Below, one piece after another: positions 14,216 through 25,288 of a stretch of 37,148 nt of DNA. Location: the NCBI GenBank assembly GCA_018830125.1, contig JAHJSY010000001.1, positions 1 through 37,148 of the forward strand, in the 5' to 3' direction. Position numbers and translations under genes: made by a program. The stretch's first letter is position 1; each line of letters starts with the position of its first letter. Source of the stretch: Patescibacteria group bacterium. GTDB lineage: Bacteria; Patescibacteriota; Minisyncoccia; Minisyncoccales; GWA2-38-27. The notes under the pieces were generated by a model. That model saw nothing but the letters and a program-made list of their open reading frames with translations, was not told where the DNA came from and ran no database searches.

Positions 14216-15497
14216 ATTAGTTCAAGTATTTAAGATAAAGGACTTAAGAAAGAAAATACTTTTTGTCTTAATGGTTTTTGTTATTTTTAGGTTAATGGCC
14301 AGTATTCCAATGCCTGGTATTAATCCCGAGAATTTACAAGAGTTTTTTGCTAGATTTAAGATGTTGGGCTTCCTTAGTGTTTTGACTGGAGGAGCTTTAA
14401 GTAGGTTCTCTATTATAATGCTTGGGATCGGACCATATATTACGTCTGTTATTATATTACAACTTTTGACAATGATTTTTCCAGGACTGGAAAGATTATA
14501 TAAAGAAGAAGGAGAGGCAGGGAAAAAGAAGTTTAATCAATATGGAAGATTGTTAACTATTCCATTGGCCTTTTTACAGGGCTATACAATGTTGGCTTGG
14601 TTGCAACGTCCACCAACGCCAGTTATTTCTCCTCCACTGGACTTCTTTGGAACGATAACAGCCCTTTTGACTATTACTGCTGGAACGGTATTTCTAATGT
14701 GGCTGGGAGAGTTAATTACTGAAAAAGGAATTGGTAATGGCGTTTCTCTTTTGATTTTTGCTGGTATTGTTGCTAGTTTACCAATGAATGTTTTTCAAGC
14801 TTTTCAAGATGTTAGTGTTGATCCAGCTAAAATAACTGGTTATGTTTTATTCTTTCTCTTGTCTTTGGTTATTATTGCGGGAGTGGTCTTGATCACCGAG
14901 GGAAGAAGAAATGTTCCGATTTCTTATGCCAAGAGAGTTAGAGGGAATAAGATGTATGGGGGTGTTTCAACATATCTTCCAATGAATATTAATCCAGCTG
15001 GAGTAATCCCAATTATATTTGCCATGTCTATTTTATTACTGCCAGAAATGGTGGCTAACTTTTTAGGTGGAGCGGGTGGAATGGTTGGGTCTGCTGCTCA
15101 AAGTGTAGCTAGTTTCATGGCCAATGCTTGGGTAAGGGGTGGTCTTTATTTTATTTTTGTTGTTTTGTTTACCTATTTCTATACAGCGGTAACTTTTAAT
15201 CCTAAATCTATTTCAGAGAATCTTCAAAAGATGGGTGGTTTTGTTCCGGGGATTAGACCAGGAGAATCAACGGCTAAATTTATTAAATATATTTTAAATA
15301 GAGTTTTACTTATTGGTGCCTTATTTCTAGCATCTATTGCTGTTATGCCTTCTGTCGTTGGAGGAATAACTGGCGTTCAAAATGTCTTTGGATTTCTTAT
15401 TGGAGGAACCTCTGTTCTAATTGTCGTTTCGGTTGTCTTAGAAACAATGAAACAAGTCAATTCTCAACTAGAGATGCGTGACTACGACACTTTTTAG
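14205..15497 (+). CDS. secY: Preprotein translocase subunit SecY
   Basis: LGIGPYITS, GIGNGVSLLIFAGI, GVIPIIFA, FVPGIRPG; start ATG 14205. Confidence 0.99.
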   Translation: MLDKLVQVFKIKDLRKKILFVLMVFVIFRLMASIPMPGINPENLQEFFARFKMLGFLSVLTGGALSRFSIIMLGIGPYITSVIILQLLTMIFPGLERLYKEEGEAGKKKFNQYGRLLTIPLAFLQGYTMLAWLQRPPTPVISPPLDFFGTITALLTITAGTVFLMWLGELITEKGIGNGVSLLIFAGIVASLPMNVFQAFQDVSVDPAKITGYVLFFLLSLVIIAGVVLITEGRRNVPISYAKRVRGNKMYGGVSTYLPMNINPAGVIPIIFAMSILLLPEMVANFLGGAGGMVGSAAQSVASFMANAWVRGGLYFIFVVLFTYFYTAVTFNPKSISENLQKMGGFVPGIRPGESTAKFIKYILNRVLLIGALFLASIAVMPSVVGGITGVQNVFGFLIGGTSVLIVVSVVLETMKQVNSQLEMRDYDTF

Positions 15498-15646: not shown

Positions 15647-15702
15647 AATGTTCTTCACTCGGTGTCGAACACCGCAGTGTTAGTCACCGAGTGTTGAACA
15701 TT
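15647..15702. repeat. REP-like hairpin family B, copy 1
   Basis: tcactcggtgtcgaacaccgcagtgttagtcaccgagtgttgaacatt identical to the copy after alaS. Confidence 0.85.
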
Positions 15703-16090: not shown

Positions 16091-16171
16091 GTTTGCTTTT
16101 GGGTTCTTGGCGTGATAATATAGATAAAAATATTAAAATAATTTGATAAAAATAAAAAACAATTAAAATAT

Positions 16172-16822
16172 ATGGCTATAAAAGTTATTATTCTTCTTGG
16201 TAAGTCTGGTTCTGGGAAAGGAACGCAGGCGGAATTATTACAAAAAAAGTTTAAGTTAGATTACATTGGAAGTGGCGATTTGCTAAGAGCAAGAACGAGA
16301 AAGAATGATTATACTGGTAAAAACCTTGATAAGGTTTTAACTGGTGGAAAGTTGGCTCCAACAGCGGTAATTCTTAAGCTTTGGCTTGACGAGGTGGAGA
16401 AACTAAAGAACAAGAAGAACCTAAATGGTTTTATTATGGATGGCAACCCAAGAAAGATTTTAGAGGCCTATTTAATAGATGATGCTCTTGATTGGTACGG
16501 ATGGGATCCAAAAGTGATCTTAGTTGATATCTCTGATAAAGAAGCAACTTGGCGTTTGACTAAAAGAAGAATTTGTAAGAAATGTAAAAACATTCTTCCT
16601 TTTATCGGCGAGTTTAGGAAAATGAAAAAGTGTCCAGATTGTGGAGGTCAATTAATGACTAGAAGTGATGATAGCATTTCGTCAGTTAAGAAAAGGTTGG
16701 ATTGGTTTAAAAAAGAGGTTCAGCCAATAATTAATTATTATAGAAAGTCTGATAGGTTGATTAAGGTCAATGGAGAGCAATCAATAGAGGGCGTTTATAA
16801 AGACATTTTAAAACATGTTTAA
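16172..16822 (+). CDS. adk: Adenylate kinase (zinc-lid type)
   Basis: GKSGSGKGTQA, SGDLLR, DGNPR, CKKC...CPDC lid, RSDD. Confidence 0.93.
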   Translation: MAIKVIILLGKSGSGKGTQAELLQKKFKLDYIGSGDLLRARTRKNDYTGKNLDKVLTGGKLAPTAVILKLWLDEVEKLKNKKNLNGFIMDGNPRKILEAYLIDDALDWYGWDPKVILVDISDKEATWRLTKRRICKKCKNILPFIGEFRKMKKCPDCGGQLMTRSDDSISSVKKRLDWFKKEVQPIINYYRKSDRLIKVNGEQSIEGVYKDILKHV

Positions 16823-17393
16823 TAAAATAGTATTTATCGTTGGAATGACTGGATCGGGGAAAAGTGCGGTTTCCGATGAATTAGTTAAAAAGGGTTTTGA
16901 GTTTGTAAGATTCGGCCAAATCACTTTAGATAAAGCAGCTGAAGAAGGGGACGTGAGCGAAGCTAATGAAAAAAAAATAAGAGAAAGAATTAGAGCTGAG
17001 CATGGAATGGCTGCTTTCGCTACTCTAAACATTCCCAAGTTTGACAAGCTGCTAGAAGAAGGGAACGTGGTTGGAGATGGACTATACAGCTGGAGCGAGT
17101 ATAAGGTGTTGAAAGAGAAGTATGGAGATAATATGTATGTCATTGCCATTTATGCTCCGCCGAAGGTAAGATACGAAAGATTAGAGGACAGAGCCATAGA
17201 GAACGATTCTAAGAATCGTTGGCGAGCCACAACCAAAGAAGAATCCAAGTCTCGAGATTATGCAGAAATAGAAAACATAGAGAAAGGAGGTCCTATCGCC
17301 ATGGCCGATTATACAATTATTAATACAGGAACATTAGAAGAATTAAAAAAAGAACTCAATAGAATTTTATCAGAAATTGATGATCAAGATTAA
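16815..17393 (+). CDS. P-loop nucleotide kinase, dephospho-CoA-kinase-like (archaeal UPF0200-like)
   Basis: GMTGSGKS, RIRAEHGMAA, DGLYSWSEY, RD..EIE....GGPIAMADY.I.N. Confidence 0.7.
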   Translation: MFNKIVFIVGMTGSGKSAVSDELVKKGFEFVRFGQITLDKAAEEGDVSEANEKKIRERIRAEHGMAAFATLNIPKFDKLLEEGNVVGDGLYSWSEYKVLKEKYGDNMYVIAIYAPPKVRYERLEDRAIENDSKNRWRATTKEESKSRDYAEIENIEKGGPIAMADYTIINTGTLEELKKELNRILSEIDDQD

Positions 17394-18129
17394 GACGGAA
17401 GAAGAAATTAAAATAATGGCTGAAGGAGGTAAGATTTTGGCTGGGATTATGAAAGAGATCATAGAAAAATCTAAGCCAGGTGTTACTACGAAGTATTTAG
17501 ACAAGGCCGCTGAAGACCTTGTTTTTAAGTATAGAGCCAAGCCATCTTTTAAGAATTTTAATAGCACTGGTTTCCCCGGCACTATTTGTGCTTCTATTAA
17601 TGAAGAGCTAGTTCATTGCGCTCCTTCAGATAGAGAATTAAAAGAAGGAGATATATTTTCTATAGACATTGGTATATTATATAAGGGATATCACTCTGAT
17701 ATGGCGGTTACTATTCCTATTGGAGAAGTTTCTCCAGAGGCCTTAAGATTAATCAGAGCTTGTAAGAAGGCCTTGAAAAGAGGGATTAAAAAAATAAGGC
17801 CAGGCCTTACTTTCGGTGATATTGGTAATACTATTCAAAGATATGTAGATGATCAGGGCTACGGAACAGTTAAAGAGCTTTGTGGACATGGAATTGGCAA
17901 AGAGCTTCATGAAGAACCACAAATAAATAATTATGGAAAAAGAAAATCAGGGCCCAAGATAACAGAAGGAATGGTTTTCTGTATTGAACCGATGATAACA
18001 ATAGGGGACTGGAATTTAAAAAAAACCAAAGATGGTTATGGTTTTCAAACAAAAGATGGCTCCCTATCAGCTCACTTTGAACATACTATAGCCGTAACCC
18101 CAAAAGGCATCAAAGTTTTAACGAAATAA
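17377..18129 (+). CDS. map: Methionine aminopeptidase type I
   Basis: CASINEELVH, DIG...GYHSD, GHGIG..LHEEP, IEPM, SAHFEHT. Confidence 0.98.
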   Translation: MMIKIKTEEEIKIMAEGGKILAGIMKEIIEKSKPGVTTKYLDKAAEDLVFKYRAKPSFKNFNSTGFPGTICASINEELVHCAPSDRELKEGDIFSIDIGILYKGYHSDMAVTIPIGEVSPEALRLIRACKKALKRGIKKIRPGLTFGDIGNTIQRYVDDQGYGTVKELCGHGIGKELHEEPQINNYGKRKSGPKITEGMVFCIEPMITIGDWNLKKTKDGYGFQTKDGSLSAHFEHTIAVTPKGIKVLTK

Positions 18130-18168
18130 AAAAAAGAGGCCAGATTTCCCGAGGGAAACCTGGTCCTT
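18128..18168 (-). terminator. Terminator of the minus-strand orphan gene
   Basis: aggccagatttccc/gggaaacctggtcct stem followed by a U tract on the minus strand. Confidence 0.65.
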
Positions 18169-18175
18169 ATTATAG

Positions 18176-18712
18176 TTACTTTGTTGATCCTTCTTCTGTT
18201 TTTCTTTCTGGCTCTGTTGTTTTTTTGCCGTCGGCATCTTTTGGTGATCTGCCGTGTGGTTTGGCTTGAACTGGTTTCGTTTCTTTCTTTTTGTAATAGT
18301 CTGCCGAAACAAGAATTTCCCCAGTAGCGGGTATCACACATTCCGGGAGGGGCTCTTCAATCGATTTGGAGAGCATTACAGACCTTATCTCTCCGGTAGC
18401 GTATTCGATTGTAGCAATTGCTCTGCCGTCTGTGCTGAACGCCTGGCCTCTCAAATGAGATATCTCTGGTCGTAAATCGGAAACATTCAATATTTTCCCT
18501 TTTCCTGCACCGTATATACTGGTGTAGAAAATCCACATTGTTGCAAATCCTGCCATACAAAGCAGAACGCATGAAATAATGCGGACATAAGGGGGAATTG
18601 GCTCTCCGCTTTCAAGAGGACGGGAGAAAAAAACTCCTGCCGCTACAAAAAACACAATTGCCGTTGTTAGTGAAGCCACTACAATTAACCACACCCTAAA
18701 GTTCTTTTTCAT
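18176..18712 (-). CDS. Orphan protein with two N-terminal TM helices
   Basis: 178-aa ORF, two hydrophobic segments, AAGGAG SD, TTGACA at 18786-18791 (minus), own terminator. Confidence 0.8.
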   Translation of the reverse strand: MKKNFRVWLIVVASLTTAIVFFVAAGVFFSRPLESGEPIPPYVRIISCVLLCMAGFATMWIFYTSIYGAGKGKILNVSDLRPEISHLRGQAFSTDGRAIATIEYATGEIRSVMLSKSIEEPLPECVIPATGEILVSADYYKKKETKPVQAKPHGRSPKDADGKKTTEPERKTEEGSTK

Positions 18713-18849
18713 GTTCGTACTCCTTAAAAAAAGTTGTCAAAGTAACCATTTACGATAGCTATATACTAGTATAGTATCAAAATCTTGTCAATGCTATTAA
18801 CATCCTTAACATTTACTTTTTGCTATAGATTGTTTACAATGAAGATAAT

Positions 18850-19527
18850 ATGGAAAAATTAATTGTTGCTAATTGGAAGATGAATCCGGGGACTTGGCAA
18901 GAAGCTGAAGAGCTTTTTGGTGCGGTAAAAAAGACAGGAGCTGTTATTTGCCCTCCGTTTATATATTTAAAAAGTTTGGCTCCTTATGAAAATCTTGGGG
19001 CTCAAGATTGTTTTTATAGAGAGAAGGGGCCTTATACTGGAGAAATTTCTGTGACCATGCTTAAAGATTTGGGATGTAAATATATTATAATTGGCCATTC
19101 AGAAAGAAGAAAGTATTTTAATGAAACAGATGAAGATATAAATAAGAAAGTTAAAACTGTTATAGAAGCTGGGCTCATTCCAATAGTTTGTGTTGGAGAA
19201 ACAGAAGAAGAAAGAGAGAATAATAAAACGGAAGAAATCTTAGAAAAAGAAATAAGAGATGGTTTAGATGGAATTGATTATTCTAAGATAGTTATTGCCT
19301 ATGAGCCAATTTGGGCTATTGGAACAGGTAACGCTTGTGATATAGAAGAAGCCGAGAGAATGAAAGAAGTAATTCAAAAAATGACTTCTAAAAATATTAA
19401 GATAATATATGGCGGAAGTGCTAACGCTGACAATGCCGATGGTTATTTAAATCAAGCTAACTTTGATGGCCTCCTCGTCGGCGGTGCTTCCCTAAAACCA
19501 GATGAATTCAAAAGAATTACGGAATAA
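18850..19527 (+). CDS. tpiA: Triosephosphate isomerase
   Basis: ANWKMN, GHSERR, AYEPIWAIGTG, YGGS, LVGGASL. Confidence 0.98.
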   Translation: MEKLIVANWKMNPGTWQEAEELFGAVKKTGAVICPPFIYLKSLAPYENLGAQDCFYREKGPYTGEISVTMLKDLGCKYIIIGHSERRKYFNETDEDINKKVKTVIEAGLIPIVCVGETEEERENNKTEEILEKEIRDGLDGIDYSKIVIAYEPIWAIGTGNACDIEEAERMKEVIQKMTSKNIKIIYGGSANADNADGYLNQANFDGLLVGGASLKPDEFKRITE

Positions 19528-21169
19528 GTTTTTAAAGTATTTTGAAGAAAGAGGGCATAAAATTGTGCCTTCTAGTTCTTTGATCCCGAAAGATAGCACT
19601 GTTTTATTAACAACAGCTGGAATGCAACAGTTTGTGCCTTATCTTTCTGGAGACCATGATGCTCTTAAGGAACTTGGCTCCTTGCATTTGGCTTCAGCCC
19701 AGAAGTGCTTTAGGGCTGTTGATATTGATGAAGTTGGAGATGATACTCATCATACTTTTTTTGAGATGCTTGGAAATTGGTCTATTGGCGTTAATGATAA
19801 AGGAGAATATTTTAAAGAAGGAGCTATTAAGTTTGCTCTTGGTTTTTTTGTTGACGAGCTTGGTTTGGATAAAGAGGAATTACATATAACGATATTTAAG
19901 GGAGATAAAGATATTCCCAAAGATGAAGAAGCAAAAAGAATATGGTTAGAAAATGGTATTTCAGAAGATAAGATTCAGGAAATGGGAATGGAAGATAACT
20001 TTTGGGGGCCAACTGCTCAAACGGGACCTTGTGGGCCTTCATCGGAAATCTACTATAATGGTGTTGAAATATGGAACTTAGTTTTCATGGAGTATAATAA
20101 AAAAGTTAATGGAAGCTTTGAAAAATTAGCTCAAACCAATATAGATACGGGTATTGGCTTTGAGAGATTGCTTTCTCTACTTAATGGTGTTGACTCTGCT
20201 TATGAAACAGACTTGTTTAAATCGGTTATCGAAAAGATTGAATCCAAAGATATAAAAACTTCAAGAATAATAGCCGACCATATTAGAGGAGCTTGTTTTC
20301 TAATTGCTGATGGAATTATTCCAAGCAATACAGAAAAAGGATATATTTTAAGAAGAATTTTAAGAAGAGCTATCAGATTTGGGAAATCAGTCGATTTAAT
20401 CGATGTCGCTAAGGTGGTTATTAATGAGTATAAAGATATATATCCTGAATTAGAAAATAATAACATTTTAGATGTTATTAGGGAAGAACAAGAAAAGTTT
20501 GGAAAAACTTTAGAAAATGGTCTTAAGCAATTTGAAAAATTAGATAAAATAACAGGGGACGATGCTTTTAATCTTTATCAAAGTTATGGATTCCCTTTTG
20601 AGCTTACGCAGGAATTAGCTGAAGAAAAGGGGATAGACGTTGATGAAAATGCTTTTAAAAATGCTTTTGAGAAACATCAGGAGCTTTCTCGGAAAGGAAT
20701 GGAGCAGAAATTTAAAGGAGGATTGGCTGATACTTCAGAGCAAACAACAAAATATCATACAGCCACCCACCTACTTTTATCGGCTTTAAGAGAGGTTTTA
20801 GATAAAGATGTTTCACAGAAGGGAAGCAATATTACGGCTGAAAGAATAAGGTTTGATTTTAATCATGATGCTAAGCTGACCGAGGAAGAAGTTAAGCGGA
20901 TTGAAGATTTAGTTAATGAGAGGATAAAAGATGATTTGGAAGTAAAGTTTGAAGAGATGCCTCTGGATCAGGCAAGAAGCGATGGGGCAGTTGGTGTTTT
21001 TGGAGAGAAATACGGAGATGTAGTTAAGGTTTACACTATCAATTCTTTCTCAAAAGAAATTTGTGGTGGTCCTCATGTTAAAAGAACTTCAGAATTAGGC
21101 CATTTCAAAATTACCAAACAAAAATCCCCCGGAGCCGGCATACGTCGCATCCGTGCAATTTTAGAATAA
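19502..21169 (+). CDS. alaS: Alanine--tRNA ligase, short form (555 aa, no C-Ala domain)
   Basis: TTAGMQQF, HHTFFEMLGNW, IDTGIGFER, HTATH...CGGPHV editing motifs, ends at GIRRIRA. Confidence 0.97.
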   Translation: MNSKELRNKFLKYFEERGHKIVPSSSLIPKDSTVLLTTAGMQQFVPYLSGDHDALKELGSLHLASAQKCFRAVDIDEVGDDTHHTFFEMLGNWSIGVNDKGEYFKEGAIKFALGFFVDELGLDKEELHITIFKGDKDIPKDEEAKRIWLENGISEDKIQEMGMEDNFWGPTAQTGPCGPSSEIYYNGVEIWNLVFMEYNKKVNGSFEKLAQTNIDTGIGFERLLSLLNGVDSAYETDLFKSVIEKIESKDIKTSRIIADHIRGACFLIADGIIPSNTEKGYILRRILRRAIRFGKSVDLIDVAKVVINEYKDIYPELENNNILDVIREEQEKFGKTLENGLKQFEKLDKITGDDAFNLYQSYGFPFELTQELAEEKGIDVDENAFKNAFEKHQELSRKGMEQKFKGGLADTSEQTTKYHTATHLLLSALREVLDKDVSQKGSNITAERIRFDFNHDAKLTEEEVKRIEDLVNERIKDDLEVKFEEMPLDQARSDGAVGVFGEKYGDVVKVYTINSFSKEICGGPHVKRTSELGHFKITKQKSPGAGIRRIRAILE

Positions 21170-21178
21170 TGCTAAAGA

Positions 21179-21234
21179 AATGTTAATCACTCGGTGTCGA
21201 ACACCGCAGTGTTAGTCACCGAGTGTTGAACATT
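21179..21234. repeat. REP-like hairpin family B, copy 2
   Basis: Identical core to 15655-15702. Confidence 0.85.
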
Positions 21235-21256
21235 TCTGTGAAAATGTATAAATATT

Positions 21257-21436
21257 ATGAAAAAAGATTCGAAAATTAAAAAAAATGTAGAAATAGTTCA
21301 AGAGATGCAGGATGAGATATTTAGAAAAATGTCTGCAAGTAGGAAAATAGAGCTTGGTTCTGGAATGTGGAGATTAGCAAAATCTTTAACAAATAACGAT
21401 GTTTTATGGAAGAAAAAGATCCAGGGCAAGTATTAA
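21257..21436 (+). CDS. Small putative antitoxin (MenA1/Rv0078B-like), 59 aa, not in the ORF track
   Basis: MKKDSKIKKNVEIVQEMQDEIFRKMSASRKIELGSGMWRLAK...; overlaps the start of the nucleotidyltransferase. Confidence 0.6.
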   Translation: MKKDSKIKKNVEIVQEMQDEIFRKMSASRKIELGSGMWRLAKSLTNNDVLWKKKIQGKY

Positions 21437-21984
21437 TTGAAGTCACAGACATTCTTCATGAATTAAATATCCCATATATTATTACTGGCGGGATGGCTGT
21501 TTTAATTTGGGGAAGACCTAGATTTACAGCGGATGTTGATATAATAGTTGAGTTGGATTATGGGAATGTTGATAATTTAACAAAAGCCCTGTTAATGCTC
21601 GGTGAAGCAAGTTATATCGACAAAGGTATGATAAAGGAAGCTTTGGAAAGCGAAGGAGAGTTTAATTTTATTCATGGGGATTCGGGTATCAAGGTAGATT
21701 TTTGGATTTTGAAGAAAAATGATCCTTTTGACTCAAGCAGAATTAAAAGAAAGGTAGTTAAAAGTATTGCCAATAAAAAAATTTATTTCTCTTCCGCTGA
21801 AGATTTAATTTTAAGTAAATTGGATTGGTATCAACAGAGTCAGTCAACTCGTCACTTAGAAGATATCGAATCAGTTTTACATGTTTCTGGAAAAAAACTG
21901 GATATGGACTATTTAAATAAATGGACAAAGAAATTAGGATTTTCAGAGGATTTTAATAAAATCTTAAACTCCAAAAAATATTAA
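21406..21984 (+). CDS. Nucleotidyltransferase, MenT/AbiEii-like putative toxin
   Basis: ITGGMAV..WGRPRFTADVD, KVDF, EDLILSKL, RHLEDI. Confidence 0.8.
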   Translation: MEEKDPGQVLIEVTDILHELNIPYIITGGMAVLIWGRPRFTADVDIIVELDYGNVDNLTKALLMLGEASYIDKGMIKEALESEGEFNFIHGDSGIKVDFWILKKNDPFDSSRIKRKVVKSIANKKIYFSSAEDLILSKLDWYQQSQSTRHLEDIESVLHVSGKKLDMDYLNKWTKKLGFSEDFNKILNSKKY

Positions 21985-22009
21985 GCTTGGTAAAACTTCT
22001 TCTATGGGG

Positions 22010-22070
22010 TATAATATATTAATGAGAGATTTTTTTTGGGGAAAAAGGGAGAAACCCTTTCTTGTTTTAG
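22010..22070 (+). repeat. Copy 1 of the ftsA-like gene promoter and 5' end
   Basis: tataatatattaATG then MRDFFWGKREKPFLVL. Confidence 0.9.
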
Positions 22071-22114
22071 TAATATTGAGTTGACTAGCCAATATAATTT
22101 TATATAATTAAAAT

Positions 22115-22417
22115 ATGACAGACACTAAACAAATTGTTAAAAATTTAAAAAAATATAAGCCAGAAAAAATTATTCTTTTTGGTAGTCATGCTTGGGGGAA
22201 ACCAAATGCATCAAGTGATGTAGATATTTTGGTTATTAAAAATTCTAAACTACCTAAACGTTTTAGAACAACTCAGGCAGAAAAATTCTTAAGTAAATTT
22301 CCTCATCCAACAGATGTTATAGTTTATACTCCACAAGAAATAGAAGAAAGGATAAAAATGGGAGATTTTTTTATTAATTTAATCTTAGAAAAAGGGCAAG
22401 TTTTATATGAAAAATAA
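22115..22417 (+). CDS. Minimal nucleotidyltransferase (MNT) antitoxin
   Basis: IILFGSHAWG.P...SDVDILV, G.VLYE; own promoter TTGACT-16-TATAAT. Confidence 0.9.
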   Translation: MTDTKQIVKNLKKYKPEKIILFGSHAWGKPNASSDVDILVIKNSKLPKRFRTTQAEKFLSKFPHPTDVIVYTPQEIEERIKMGDFFINLILEKGQVLYEK

Positions 22418-22537
22418 TCATGTGCAACTCGTTATCCTGGAGATATTGAAAAATATTCATGGGAAGAAGTAAAACAAGCATTAAAAGCAGTAGATGATGC
22501 AAGGGATAAAATTCTAAAAATTTGCAAAATTTTTTGA
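22407..22537 (+). pseudogene. Internally deleted, frameshifted HEPN toxin remnant
   Basis: ATG 22407 (MKNNHV) overlaps the MNT stop; another frame gives TRYPGDIEKYSWEEVKQALKAVDDARDKI, typical of a HEPN C-terminus. Confidence 0.7.
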
Positions 22538-22584
22538 AGTAGGTTTTTTAACAAGAAAACCTTTGTTAAATTTCTTCTACGGGG

Positions 22585-22647
22585 TATAATATACTAATGA
22601 GAGAATTATTTTGGAAAAAAGGGGGAAAGCCCTTTCTGGTTTTGGAT
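22585..22647 (+). repeat. Copy 2 (diverged) of the ftsA-like gene promoter and 5' end
   Basis: tataatatactaATG then MRELFWKKGGKPFLVLD. Confidence 0.85.
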
Positions 22648-22674
22648 AGAAAATAAAAAAGTATTAAGATATAA

Positions 22675-23112
22675 ATGGCTTATCAAATTGACCAATCGGG
22701 TAAAGTTGAAGACACAAATAAATTAACCATTGTTGCTTTAGCCAATGGCAGAGTTAAGAGTTTAAAAATTAGTGCTGTAGAAAAACAAAAACTAATTAAA
22801 ATAATGCGCATACATGATTATCCTAAAAAGACATTTATTTATAAAATTTTTGCTAGCTTAATATTTTTGTTACTAAAAAATGAAAGAATAGAAGGAATTA
22901 TAATCGATAATGAATACCCAGGACACCAAGCAATAATTAAAGATGTTTTACAACGTCTCTTCAAAAAGAAAAATAAACAGGCACCTGAAATAATGTTTGC
23001 TGAAATAGGTAAGAAAAGTATTGCTCACAAGGTGGCATTAGAAGTATTTAGAGGAAAAAGAAAGCCAGATATTATAATAGGGGCAGATGATGTGATAAAA
23101 CTTTTATACTAA
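22675..23112 (+). CDS. DUF3800-like (RNase H-like fold) protein
   Basis: N-terminal YQIDQSGK resembling the YxDESG motif; IIIDNEY acidic motif; convergent structured RNA downstream. Confidence 0.55.
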   Translation: MAYQIDQSGKVEDTNKLTIVALANGRVKSLKISAVEKQKLIKIMRIHDYPKKTFIYKIFASLIFLLLKNERIEGIIIDNEYPGHQAIIKDVLQRLFKKKNKQAPEIMFAEIGKKSIAHKVALEVFRGKRKPDIIIGADDVIKLLY

Positions 23113-23201
23113 AAAAGCGAGCAAGAGCTCCTGCTCCAGGCAGGAGAATCCTTAGCTCAGACCGCCAGTTACGAACGGTGGTCACTAAGGCAATGTTCGC
23201 T
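23111..23201 (-). ncRNA. Structured multi-stem ncRNA convergent with the DUF3800-like gene
   Basis: Stems agcgagca/tgttcgct, ctcctgc/gcaggag, ccttag/ctaagg, gaccgcc/ggtggtc; minus promoter TTGACA-16-TATACT (23208-23235); U tract at 23111-23116. Confidence 0.65.
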
Positions 23202-23283
23202 ACTTTAAGTATAGCATAACCAGAAACCCTGTCAAGTCTTTAAAATGTTTTGTTTTATCTCTTATAAATGATATAATATATTA

Positions 23284-24045
23284 ATGAGAGATTTTTTTTG
23301 GGGAAAAAGGGAGAAACCCTTTCTGGTTTTGGATGTTGAAGATGATTCAATAAAGAGTTTGATTTTGAGAAAAGATAAAAATAAGCTAGTTCTTTTAGGA
23401 AATGCTTTGGAAAGATACGGTGAGAATGATTTGAAAGAGAAAATCTTAAAAGCGATTGAAGGATCATATAATAACTACATATTTTTTTCTAATAAGCAAG
23501 AAAGAAATAAATATACTTGGCAGAATATTCCTGTTTTACTTGGCTTACCCTCAAGTGTGTTGAAAGCAAGGGTTATTTCATGCAATTTTAATCGTAATAA
23601 CCGTTCAAAAATATCCAAGAAAGAAGAAGTAGAGATTTTAAAAAAAGCTCTTAGGATGGTTAAGAGCAAGATCGGGAATGAGTTTGTTAGGGATTTTGGT
23701 ATTTTGCCCGAAGATATTAGATACACAAATTTTAAGATTTTAGAGACAGATATTAATGGTTACTTGGTTTCCAATCTTTTTGGTTTCGAGGGGCAAAATT
23801 TAAACCTCAAAGTTTTAGCAACCTTTATTCCTCAAAACGATCTTATCAATATTAAATCAACGCTTGATAGTTTAGGGATTAAAGTTTCTAAAATAATGCA
23901 TATAGCAGAGGCCCTGTCAGAATCAGGTGATAAGGTTATTTATCCAAAAGATTTAAAAAATATTAAAAATTTATCAAGAAAGTTGGAGAATTCATCATAT
24001 ACTCCAACTCTATTGATGTCATACTATGCAAAAGAAATTCTTTGA
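23284..24045 (+). CDS. Degenerate FtsA/PilM-like (actin-fold N-terminal, SHS2) protein
   Basis: FLVLDVEDDSIK start, INGYLVSNL.GF.G..L.L.V..TFIP pattern; short, C-terminal ATPase motifs absent. Confidence 0.55.
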   Translation: MRDFFWGKREKPFLVLDVEDDSIKSLILRKDKNKLVLLGNALERYGENDLKEKILKAIEGSYNNYIFFSNKQERNKYTWQNIPVLLGLPSSVLKARVISCNFNRNNRSKISKKEEVEILKKALRMVKSKIGNEFVRDFGILPEDIRYTNFKILETDINGYLVSNLFGFEGQNLNLKVLATFIPQNDLINIKSTLDSLGIKVSKIMHIAEALSESGDKVIYPKDLKNIKNLSRKLENSSYTPTLLMSYYAKEIL

Positions 24046-25288
24046 TATTATACCACCAAAGGAGGAAGTGACCGAGTCACTTTTAACCGAAAAAAGTGAC
24101 TCGGTCACTTTGGAGCCAGTGGCGGTTGTTAAGGAGAAAAGGCACTCCCGTTTTCCAAAAGCATTGATCGGCGTAGTAACTATCGCAGTTTTAGCTTTAA
24201 TCGTAGTTTTCTTTTTGCCTAATGATGTTGAAATTAAAGTTTGGCCGGTAATGAGAGACGTAGCTTTCACAGAAACAGTCATTATTGATTTAAATACCGC
24301 AGAAGTTGATTTAGAAAATAATATTATTCCTGGTCAAATTGTTAATAGTGAAAAAACTGGATCTCAAGAGTTTAGTTCTACTGGGACAGCAATCAAAGAA
24401 TCAAAAGCCGAAGGAACAATCACGGTCTATAATGCCTATTCTTCGTCTTCTCGGTCGTTAGTTGTTTCGCGTTTTGTTTCGGCAGACGGAAAACTATTTT
24501 GGTCAACAAGGAAAATAACTATCCCAGGATATCATTATGAAGGAGGCAAGCTTATTCCTGGCGAAAAAGAAGTTGAAGTTATAGCAGCCGAGGCGGGTCC
24601 AGAATATAATATTTCAGCAACCACTTTTGCCTTACCAGCTTTAGCCGGAACAGCTTTGTATACCACTATCTATGCTAAATCATTCTCTCCGATGATGGGA
24701 GGATATGAGGGAAAAGTTGGCCAGGTTACTCAAGACGATTTAGACAATGCTGAAAATATCCTAGCAGAAAAGCTAAAATCAGAAAACGCAGATCAATTGA
24801 CAAAATCTTTAGAAGAAGATTTTATGCTACCAAGCGAAACAATAATTAATGACATTTCAAATATTAAAAGTTCTCAATTGGTTGGGGCTAAGGTTGATTC
24901 GTTTAATCTTGAAGCGGGAATAAAATCAACTGGCCTGGCTTTTAGAAAATCGGATATAGATGATTTTGTTTTGGCGAACATTAATTTGAATATTAAGCAG
25001 GATCACGTAATCAAAGAAGGAACTTTGGAAATAGAGTATGTTTTAGAAGAAGTAGATTTAGAAACCGGACAAATGATTATTCGATTAGAGGTTAGCGCTA
25101 AAAGCCATGCGGATATTGATTTGGAAACTTTAAAGAAGGCCATTATAGGTAAATCATTCAAGGAGACAGAAATATTCTTAAATAGTTTGCCAGAAATAGA
25201 TAGAATTGAGTTAAATACGGGTTTATCACTAAAGAAAACAATCCCAGAGGACATGAGTAAAGTAGAAGTGTTGTTGGGACTTGACTAA
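24026..25288 (+). CDS. Membrane-anchored protein with baseplate J-like domain (conserved Parcubacteria family)
   Basis: Single TM, KAEGTITVYN, V.AAEAGPEYNI, M.GG...V..VTQDD. Confidence 0.6.
   Translation: MQKKFFDIIPPKEEVTESLLTEKSDSVTLEPVAVVKEKRHSRFPKALIGVVTIAVLALIVVFFLPNDVEIKVWPVMRDVAFTETVIIDLNTAEVDLENNIIPGQIVNSEKTGSQEFSSTGTAIKESKAEGTITVYNAYSSSSRSLVVSRFVSADGKLFWSTRKITIPGYHYEGGKLIPGEKEVEVIAAEAGPEYNISATTFALPALAGTALYTTIYAKSFSPMMGGYEGKVGQVTQDDLDNAENILAEKLKSENADQLTKSLEEDFMLPSETIINDISNIKSSQLVGAKVDSFNLEAGIKSTGLAFRKSDIDDFVLANINLNIKQDHVIKEGTLEIEYVLEEVDLETGQMIIRLEVSAKSHADIDLETLKKAIIGKSFKETEIFLNSLPEIDRIELNTGLSLKKTIPEDMSKVEVLLGLD
24066..24111. repeat. Inverted pair of REP-like palindromes inside the CDS
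   Basis: aagtgac-cga-gtcactt and aagtgac-tcg-gtcactt. Confidence 0.8.

Follow-up and report, generated by a model that had tools for sequence, protein, structure and literature searches.

How does a junction between two conserved genes come to hold three small accessory modules and, among them, truncated copies of the start of one of those genes? The question is raised by a 37,148-nt stretch from an ultra-small groundwater bacterium of the Patescibacteria group (contig JAHJSY010000001.1; hereafter the window), which is one contig (C8) of a genome of 617,556 bases in 55 contigs (G000). Bacteria of the candidate phyla radiation (CPR) have tiny, tightly packed genomes in which few recognisable mobile elements have been described, and the route by which they gain defence and toxin-antitoxin (TA) genes is poorly understood. 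The junction lies in a ribosomal-protein superoperon that is interrupted by tpiA, alaS and two lineage-specific genes. Between the stop codon of alaS (21167-21169) and the ATG at 23284 of a 253-amino-acid (aa) gene of the FtsA/PilM family (hereafter the target gene) are 2,114 nt. These hold, in order, a palindrome (H1), cassette A, a first repeat copy (R1), cassette B, a second copy (R2), cassette C with a structured element, and a third copy (R3), which serves the intact target gene as its resident promoter and 5′ end. The insert, 2.08 kb long and placed exactly between the alaS stop codon and the target gene, is specific to this lineage and has three small accessory modules stacked in it. 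R1 and R2 are defunct relics of a junction made up of the promoter and first 17-23 codons of the target gene. We class the event as recombinational accretion that leaves relics of a target end, a kind already known. What is new is that the end is a 5′ end with its promoter, that the units are very small, that the genome is of the CPR type, and that the promoter resembles a REPIN (a doublet of repetitive extragenic palindromic, or REP, sequences).

The repeat is one family of three direct copies of 86 nt, at 21983-22068, 22558-22643 (83% identical to the first) and 23245-23330 (84%), and R2 is 83% identical to each of R1 and R3. In full, the copies extend over 21984-22090, 22559-22650 and 23246-23350. 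A search of the whole genome with 23245-23345 hit only three places (E-values 5e-48, 6e-24 and 5e-18), and chance is excluded as the source of the repeat because the next-best matches are at most 38 nt long at E-values of at least 0.002. By both the repeat search and the genome search, the three promoter and 5′-end copies reported in the initial annotation of this stretch are real. The peptides of the copies are as it gave them, and the motif ttcttcta(t/c)gggg is indeed present upstream of copies 1 and 2. It put the three copies in the right places, but the first is longer than it stated and the second ends at 22649-22650. Relative to the ATG, R1 covers -38 to about +69 and R2 covers -38 to +52 (its end falls at +52/53). 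The distal part of R1 has diverged and has a 2-nt insertion, which brings in stop codons, and a 1-nt gap; it runs to about 22088-22090 and can be aligned with the gene of a same-genus relative up to 22086. The R2 unit as a whole (22541-22650, + strand) comprises half of a palindrome (22541-22584), TATAAT, ATG, 17 codons of the target gene, two further codons and a stop. An AAAGGG..CCCTTT hairpin in the repeat looks like a terminator; we judged it a by-product of the Lys and Phe/Leu codons, and equivalent pairs of A-runs and T-runs occur in other genera.

A same-genus relative (G002), whose target protein is 96% identical, shows the junction without the insert: the alaS stop codon, 38 nt and the ATG. 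This spacer aligns with the upstream part of R3, and the insert replaces 3 nt there. A metagenome scan with the target protein found one locus only, on an independent contig 99.99% identical to the G002 empty site. Relative to this site, an insertion at the junction of alaS and the target gene, as first proposed, is borne out. The further proposal of an insertion hotspot is not. Among the relatives' genomes, with one representative per species, alaS is directly upstream of the target gene in 18 of 19 loci, and the spacer measures 24-45 nt in 11 loci, 87-190 nt in four and 238-343 nt in four (including the locus without alaS). A second copy of the target 5′ region within 3 kb upstream was found in 0/18 loci, with a single 13-nt chance match and the window as positive control. 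In the relatives searched, no 5′ end is duplicated and alaS with one exception adjoins the target gene, an outcome that the initial annotation itself had named as one that would refute its reading.

Divergence from the same relative changes abruptly at the insert. Codons with synonymous differences number 26 of the first 250 codons of alaS, 66 of its last 306 and 14 of 254 in the target gene, so that the 3′ 55% of alaS is about twice as diverged synonymously as the 5′ part and there is an approximately four-fold jump across the insert. The insert appears to sit at a boundary between tracts of different history. Identity to the relative along the wider region is mosaic (72-100%), which suggests frequent recombination tracts. 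Identity reaches 97-100% in the middle of secY and in the rps/rpl genes but is 72-89% in adk, map and tpiA (14400-15300 versus 16100-19300). Between map and tpiA, a 178-aa open reading frame on the - strand (18176-18712) has 47% identity with its counterpart in the relative, and its neighbours have 82-95%.

An array with internal repeats could also be produced by assembly, if strains living side by side carried different cassettes here and the shared repeat led to these being strung together in a single contig. The source is a metagenome-type assembly of 55 contigs, and the central block of R1 and R3 is identical over 53 nt, within which contigs built at k=31 break. The assembly was compared with the Logan contigs (k=31) of four runs. 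In the likely source run the depths of the pieces are 110 on the alaS side, 110 at 21205-22039, 121 at 22033-22585, 109 at 22561-23301 and 102 from 23295 onward. They do not behave as fractions that add up, and a chimera of strains with alternative cassettes is disfavoured because the depths are equal. The joints between the end of R1 and cassette B and between the end of R2 and cassette C are unique sequence inside single Logan contigs (22033-22585 and 22561-23301), pieces of the array are present with 100% identity in a run that belongs to a different study, and R2 and R3 have no 31-mer in common. A further contig (X3, 23183-23482) spans cassette C, R3 and the gene, although at k=31 it does not phase the 53-nt block. 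No joints diagnostic of deletions between repeats or of excised circles were seen among the Logan contigs, which say nothing about absence. A strain-chimeric misassembly, raised in the initial annotation as the other way in which its reading could fail, is in our estimate extremely improbable.

The truncated copies do not look like fresh duplicates of the resident gene start, and appear to belong to other alleles of the target gene. The clearest sign is upstream, in the 26 nt before TATAAT, where identities were counted by hand on the alignment. R1 and R2 are 81% identical here, whereas R1 and R3 are 50% and R2 and R3 58% identical, and R3 is 85% identical to the empty site of the relative. 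The intact copy R3 has the promoter type of the empty-site relative and the relics have a foreign type. Within the coding part, R2 differs from R3 at eight nucleotides, all within codons 3-11, and the invariant FLVLD codons are untouched; by our own arithmetic, uniform placement would give this with a probability of (25/51)^8, or about 0.003. Six codons are changed. One change is synonymous, two are conservative (D/E and F/L) and three (G/K, R/G and E/G) are neither, so that the earlier description of the changes as synonymous or conservative goes too far. Four of the five amino-acid changes are states found in 16 database orthologues or in the close relative's gene. The distal part of R1 encodes D-I-E, like most orthologues, where the resident gene has D-V-E, and holds TTTTAG, as does a second same-genus relative. 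The suggestion that copy 2 came from the orthologue of another strain therefore agrees with both the alignment and the orthologue states, and extends to copy 1. R1 also carries a trace of later exchange with the resident copy. Positions 22010-22068 and 23272-23330 match over 59 nt at 98%, including 53 identical nt from TATAAT onward, although both sides have diverged; such a pattern is what gene conversion between R1 and R3, or a crossover between them not long ago, would leave.

A different origin of the truncated copies is duplication in place, in which two overlapping illegitimate joints or a staggered break duplicate the whole junction and the spare copies drift. Scars like those of the array exist at other tight junctions. 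The first two that follow count towards the recombination proposed below, and the first also speaks for duplication in place. In a second genome (G358, which has four contigs; locus L101, C2 3254-8348), murG is followed in turn by an ABC-transporter pair, a repeat, a module of the cassette A type, a further repeat and gltX. The repeat is specific to this locus and has three copies, made up of the final 27-38 nt of murG, the spacer and ATGAA of gltX. These copies are near-identical (two mismatches in 36 nt, five in 44 nt) and span exactly a gene end, a spacer and a gene start, as selection for intact flanks demands. The -35 box of the downstream gene lies inside the last murG codons there and is duplicated with each insertion. 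Elsewhere in the window's own genome (C48:6825-9200; L105), a Y1 transposase gene is followed by a pilin promoter with about eight codons and a stop, an NYN cassette, and the same promoter with the intact gene. This intact gene is type IV pilin-like with a Laminin_G_3 domain. In a third genome (G156), an MNT homologue lies between two copies of a 76-nt gene start that are 1.8 kb apart, the second of them at a contig end. Junction duplication is recurrent but rare. An array of MNT-HEPN, NYN and A-type cassettes in a further genome (G070) was set aside, since its 84-nt repeats are a dispersed repeat of that genome and so a different phenomenon. Local repeats at C48 and C49 were also compared with relatives, but these loci are not syntenic and no empty sites can be read.

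We also compared the genome with the whole genome of the close relative (27 contigs, 407 kb), which gave 31 one-sided insertions of at least 300 nt, one of them spurious, with 19 in G000 and 12 in the relative. Two of those specific to G000 (C41:2475-2848 and C45:420-2042) have 11-13-nt direct repeats of the target at their edges, and a AAATCAAG motif nearby. Edge repeats of this kind, like the G358 scars, speak for duplication in place. At the window's junction the evidence runs the other way. The promoter type of R1 and R2 is missing from both R3 and the empty-site relative; R1 and R2 would have to predate the split from that array-free relative and yet keep a perfect 33-nt consensus element; and drift would not have spared the conserved codons, as the changes in R2 do. 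We regard duplication in place as quite unlikely to account for this array.

The account that we tentatively favour, at somewhat under an even chance, is stepwise recombination with diverged relatives in which one end is homologous and the other is illegitimate within the first 50-70 nt of the target gene. Incoming DNA from diverged relatives would carry a cassette at their own junction of alaS and the target gene. One end would recombine homologously in the conserved essential flank and the other would be joined illegitimately within that first part of the target gene. For a product to survive, alaS would have to be kept along with the promoter and gene in full, so that each event would leave a truncated copy. 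Gene conversion between R1 and R3 would later have given rise to the 53 identical nt. The newest unit would be either the left one, with alaS as the anchor and the relics brought in by donors, or the right one, with the target gene as the anchor and the relics being displaced resident alleles. We prefer recombination with diverged relatives because the relics are foreign alleles, their ends differ, divergence jumps across the insert, cassette A lacks a copy on its left, and there is no attP-like copy. The different relic ends (about +69 and +52) fit illegitimate joints and not one fixed crossover site.

The route would be homology-facilitated illegitimate recombination (HFIR), for which short-homology Campbell-type recombination at a junction copy is an equivalent description. 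Classical cases of HFIR replace or delete recipient DNA, and natural transformation occurs in Patescibacteria. In natural transformation, foreign DNA is reportedly fixed through a homologous anchor at one end and an illegitimate joint at the other, as de Vries and Wackernagel are said to have described in 2002. The divergence jump and the variable relic ends at our locus are like this; repeated events at one junction, which stack up relics of the start of an essential gene, are unlike it. We know of no description of stacked relics of this origin, and no such arrays were found in the literature on mobile elements of Patescibacteria and on REPINs and their transposases in CPR bacteria.

Several observations weigh against stepwise recombination. 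Scans of the metagenome, the genome collection and viral sequences returned no donor genome with a single cassette before an R1- or R2-type allele. Both joints fall in the first 70 nt of a 762-nt gene, for which uniform expectation is (70/762)^2, or 0.008 (our own arithmetic), and this clustering may point to a favoured site or to longer fragments being selected against. With no relic to the left of cassette A, its arrival needs a separate event. The divergence of the alaS 3′ part may in part reflect weaker constraint, against a background that is mosaic anyway. Internal copies of a flank are present in only one of the 31 one-sided insertions, that of the window, the others having 0-26 nt of overlap at their edges. 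Finally, with Logan contigs breaking inside the R1/R3 block, the order of the array across that block, with A-R1-B and C-R3-gene and not A-R-gene plus a separate B-R2-C circle, rests on the original assembly.

The main rival is tandem accretion of decayed site-specific integrative elements, of the kind known as cis-mobilisable elements (CIMEs). Each cassette would be what is left of an element that integrated into the 5′ end of the target gene; the attP of the element would have carried a replacement promoter and 5′ end, and its integrase genes would later have been lost or would act in trans from elsewhere. Small modules set apart by direct repeats in which a target-gene end is included are the textbook sign of such accretion, according to passages of PMC5704250 that cite Pavlovic 2004 and Bellanger 2011. 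The array resembles these in its modules without integration genes, its direct repeats with a target-gene end and its TA-type cargo, of a sort that decay often spares. Copies derived from attP would be foreign in type, and the relics are; the genome does encode one tyrosine recombinase (PF00589, contig C50) and two serine recombinases (PF00239, contigs C24 and C17). The array departs from these elements in having a 5′ end and promoter as target, units of only 0.6-0.9 kb and repeats that end differently. B lies between R1 and R2 and C between R2 and R3, whereas A has no copy on its left; there are three cassettes but only three copies, none of which adjoins alaS. The ends of the homology, at about +69 in R1 and +52/53 in R2, are some 16 nt apart where one core site is expected for a single crossover. 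The model also wants the gene-proximal copy to be element-derived and the distal one to be native, but it is R3, and not R1, that agrees with the empty-site relative.

Neither a cognate integrase nor an attP turned up for such elements. No integrase or transposase gene is present in the stretch of the window examined and no recombinase gene in the array, in agreement with the initial annotation; all matches to PF00589, PF00239 and PF01797 are on other contigs. The tyrosine recombinase (315 aa) is encoded among housekeeping genes and looks Xer-like. A tRNA scan of the window found a single tRNA, at 42-115, so that there is no tRNA-type att site at the array. No further attP-like copy of the repeat is present in the whole genome, and pattern scans for its coding core returned 71 stretches from the genome collection and four viral ones, in which all matches but the locus of the close relative are chance matches of 19-39 nt and none is a mobile element. 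On balance, we consider accretion of integrative elements unlikely here. Islands stacked at ssrA of Dehalococcoides, for which site-specific mobilisation is reported in PMC3146451, offer a related comparison. As at our locus, acquired modules lie at the end of a conserved single-copy gene in a small genome; unlike it, the islands are of kilobase scale and located at the tmRNA gene. They are also said to carry integrases and to sit at the 3′ end of the gene.

Comparison with integrons was first made in the initial annotation, which called the array integron-like. The small, mostly single-function cassettes in the same direction, each followed by a repeat unit of about 90-110 nt, are indeed similar. 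The label itself does not hold, as there is no intI, attI or attC and cassette B has its own promoter. The sole PF00589 match is the one on C50, outside the window, and no palindrome spans the repeat units in the repeat search (no attC-specific model was run). The repeat consists of the promoter native to a neighbouring gene and the beginning of its coding sequence. Integron cassettes are mostly promoterless and expressed from a common promoter, whereas here the promoter of cassette B matches the consensus at 11 of 12 positions and those of R1 (TTGGTA-17-TATAAT) and R2 at 10 of 12, these being consensus matches only. The relic promoters are probably still active and may contribute to the expression of cassettes B and C. 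The junction copies with their REPIN-type promoter arm could conceivably act as portable recombination sites, at which natural populations of these ultra-small bacteria swap and stack small defence or TA cassettes without an integrase. We think this unlikely. If it were true, each stacked cassette would gain a strong leaderless-type promoter, and the whole would function as an integron for which the host supplies both recombination and promoter.

The promoter arm has its own origin. The right arm of a GTAG-tagged, REPIN-like palindrome of about 80 nt (CCCCGTAGAGAAAATTTGAC ... GTCAAATTTCTTCTACGGGG) makes up the upstream half of both R1 and R2. R2 also keeps the central mini-hairpin, from 22541, so that 22541-22584 is half an element. 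A 13-nt motif of the arm occurs seven times exactly in the genome and 13 times with up to one mismatch. In R2, the 33 nt at 22561-22593 are 100% identical to elements in another genus, and stretches of 30-33 nt of the palindrome are 100% identical across genera. In those genera the palindrome precedes tRNA genes and ATGs located 6-7 nt after TATAAT, a layout that looks leaderless. The palindrome also occurs at C36:54638 and about 10 other places in G000, and in loci L080-L099; its arms double as a -35 box and spacer in front of TATAAT.

H1 (21176-21237), just after the alaS stop codon, is a dispersed REP-like imperfect palindrome with 29-nt arms and a 4-nt loop. It has 12 other copies at 89-100% identity, plus more diverged ones, which are intergenic and often paired. 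The copies are 56-62 nt long, with H1 itself counted at 21179-21234, and the others are located at 15647-15702 of the window and on 10 other contigs, including C3, C20, C27, C31, C34, C41, C47, C54 and C55. H1 is missing from the empty site of the relative. REP and REPIN elements and their transposases (RAYTs, REP-associated tyrosine transposases) are a known system, described in PMC3116915 and PMC3337134. In this genome there are GTAG-tagged palindromes in about 10 copies, whose arms form the upstream halves of R1 and R2, and seven Y1 (IS200-like/RAYT) genes; with dispersed GTAG-tagged palindromes and Y1 transposase genes both present, H1 and the GTAG-tagged promoter palindromes (P) are of the REP/REPIN kind. 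The repeat as a whole is not: unlike in the known system, the arm doubles as a sigma-70-type -35 box and spacer, and the duplicated coding part lies outside the element.

These palindromes raise the possibility that Y1 (HUH) REP-associated transposases moved hairpin-bounded cassettes as single strands and, through imprecise recognition of the ends, co-mobilised the flanking target. Seven PF01797 matches, all above the Pfam cut-off (C52, C36, C55, C1, C48, C47 and C30), are present in this 617-kb genome; published RAYTs are typically single-copy according to a passage in PMC5581495. H1 bounds cassette A, R1 and R2 contain the REPIN-like arms, and at C48 the duplicated promoter comes straight after the Y1 gene. 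On the other hand, no dispersed element includes the 52-69 nt of the target gene that are the repeat's coding part, cassettes B and C lack hairpins on both sides, and there is no Y1 gene on this contig. Transposition of the IS200/IS605 type makes no target duplication. We consider mobilisation by Y1 transposases distinctly improbable.

Cassette A (21257-21984, + strand) is a TA-like two-gene module recognised from Pfam matches and from co-occurrence at other loci. Its first gene, A1 (21257-21436, 59 aa), overlaps the second, A2 (21406-21984, 192 aa). A2 matches the DUF6036 nucleotidyltransferase family at 24.0 bits, over a cut-off of 23.6, and AbiEii (PF08843) at an E-value of 0.004 and 17.4 bits, below the cut-off of 22.5; the PADLOC AbiEii model gives an E-value of 0.006. 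A2 has matches at 12 loci in other genomes, and A1 is also present at eight of these, in unrelated gene contexts. The pair had been called MenAT-like, which is correct in that a nucleotidyltransferase follows a small upstream partner, but the family is DUF6036 and AbiEii falls below its cut-off.

Cassette B (22081-22417, + strand) consists of its own promoter, TTGACT-16-TATAAT at 22081-22108, the -35 box of which lies inside the end of R1, and of an intact MNT-type nucleotidyltransferase gene (22115-22417, 100 aa). The protein matches PF01909 (E-value 2e-10), PADLOC PDC-S09 and, weakly, MntA and HalB (MntA model E-value 4e-7, below cut-off). It is followed by the final 37 codons of a HEPN toxin gene (22424-22537, + strand), from which about 290 nt have been lost. 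The remnant was identified by TBLASTN to the partner genes of MNT homologues (L066, E-value 5e-8; L075, E-value 1e-6); a Pfam search with its 37 residues returned nothing. The MNT-HEPN remnant named in the initial annotation is thus confirmed. As the MNT gene is whole and HEPN is down to 37 C-terminal codons, this is not an intact MNT-HEPN (type VII) pair, and what remains of cassette B is, judging from its genes, a putative orphan antitoxin.

Cassette C has one gene (22675-23112, + strand, 145 aa), with homologues in loci L073 and L079 and no Pfam or NCBIfam family. Its predicted Atlas structure has an RNase H-like fold, with unnamed archaeal/CPR clusters as nearest neighbours (template-modelling (TM) score 0.80-0.82). 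The similarity to DUF3800 that had been suggested keeps a structural lead from this model, at a TM score of 0.72, under the bar of the tool, but no sequence family supports it. Beside the gene is a G+C-rich, three-stem structured RNA element (23116-23201), recognised by its fold and conservation, with fold z-scores of -4.36 on the + strand and -2.0 on the - strand. Homologues are found at L073:1489-1600 and in L079; a 45-nt core is nearly invariant in these two other genomes, and two stems have altered in sequence yet still pair. G-U pairs favour the + strand, that of the cassette C gene. On the - strand are a promoter at 23235-23208 (11/12) and an intrinsic terminator at 23136-23119, with the same layout in L073. 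A search of Rfam returned nothing at gathering scores in the whole window, and since only chance-level matches appear at E-values up to 10 in 21100-23400, the element belongs to no Rfam 15 family.

Both flanking genes are intact. On the left is alaS (19502-21169, + strand, 555 aa; Pfam tRNA-synt_2c, E-value 3e-122), and on the right is the target gene (23284-24045, + strand, 253 aa), a short form of the FtsA/PilM actin fold. The window's target protein has no Pfam or NCBIfam match of its own. A profile of 14 orthologues matches FtsA (3wt0, E-value 1e-12) and PilM (3jc8), and 11 of the 14 match PF14450, so that the initial label of ftsA-like is right at the family level. The 16 database orthologues are 45-100% identical. 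In other genera the protein is about 370-430 aa long with the N-terminal motif FLVLDIGTE. In its own genus it is 225-253 aa long and reads FLVLDVEDDS, with the DxGT (phosphate-1) motif lost, and this short form may no longer bind nucleotide. The target gene is overlapped by the next gene (24026-25288, 420 aa), which has no family and no TBLASTN match in other genera.

The locus is a clean, datable example of gene acquisition in a CPR genome: an otherwise invariant junction in a ribosomal-protein superoperon took in three modules with both flanking genes intact, and the scars record the alleles that were involved. If the same scars recur in a strain series, they would give a direct readout of gene flow and of the mechanics of recombination in uncultured lineages, and would demonstrate a part for promoter-bearing REPIN-like elements in building expression units. 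If the array is merely a set of decayed integrative elements, it would extend a known process to a 5′-end target in a new phylum.

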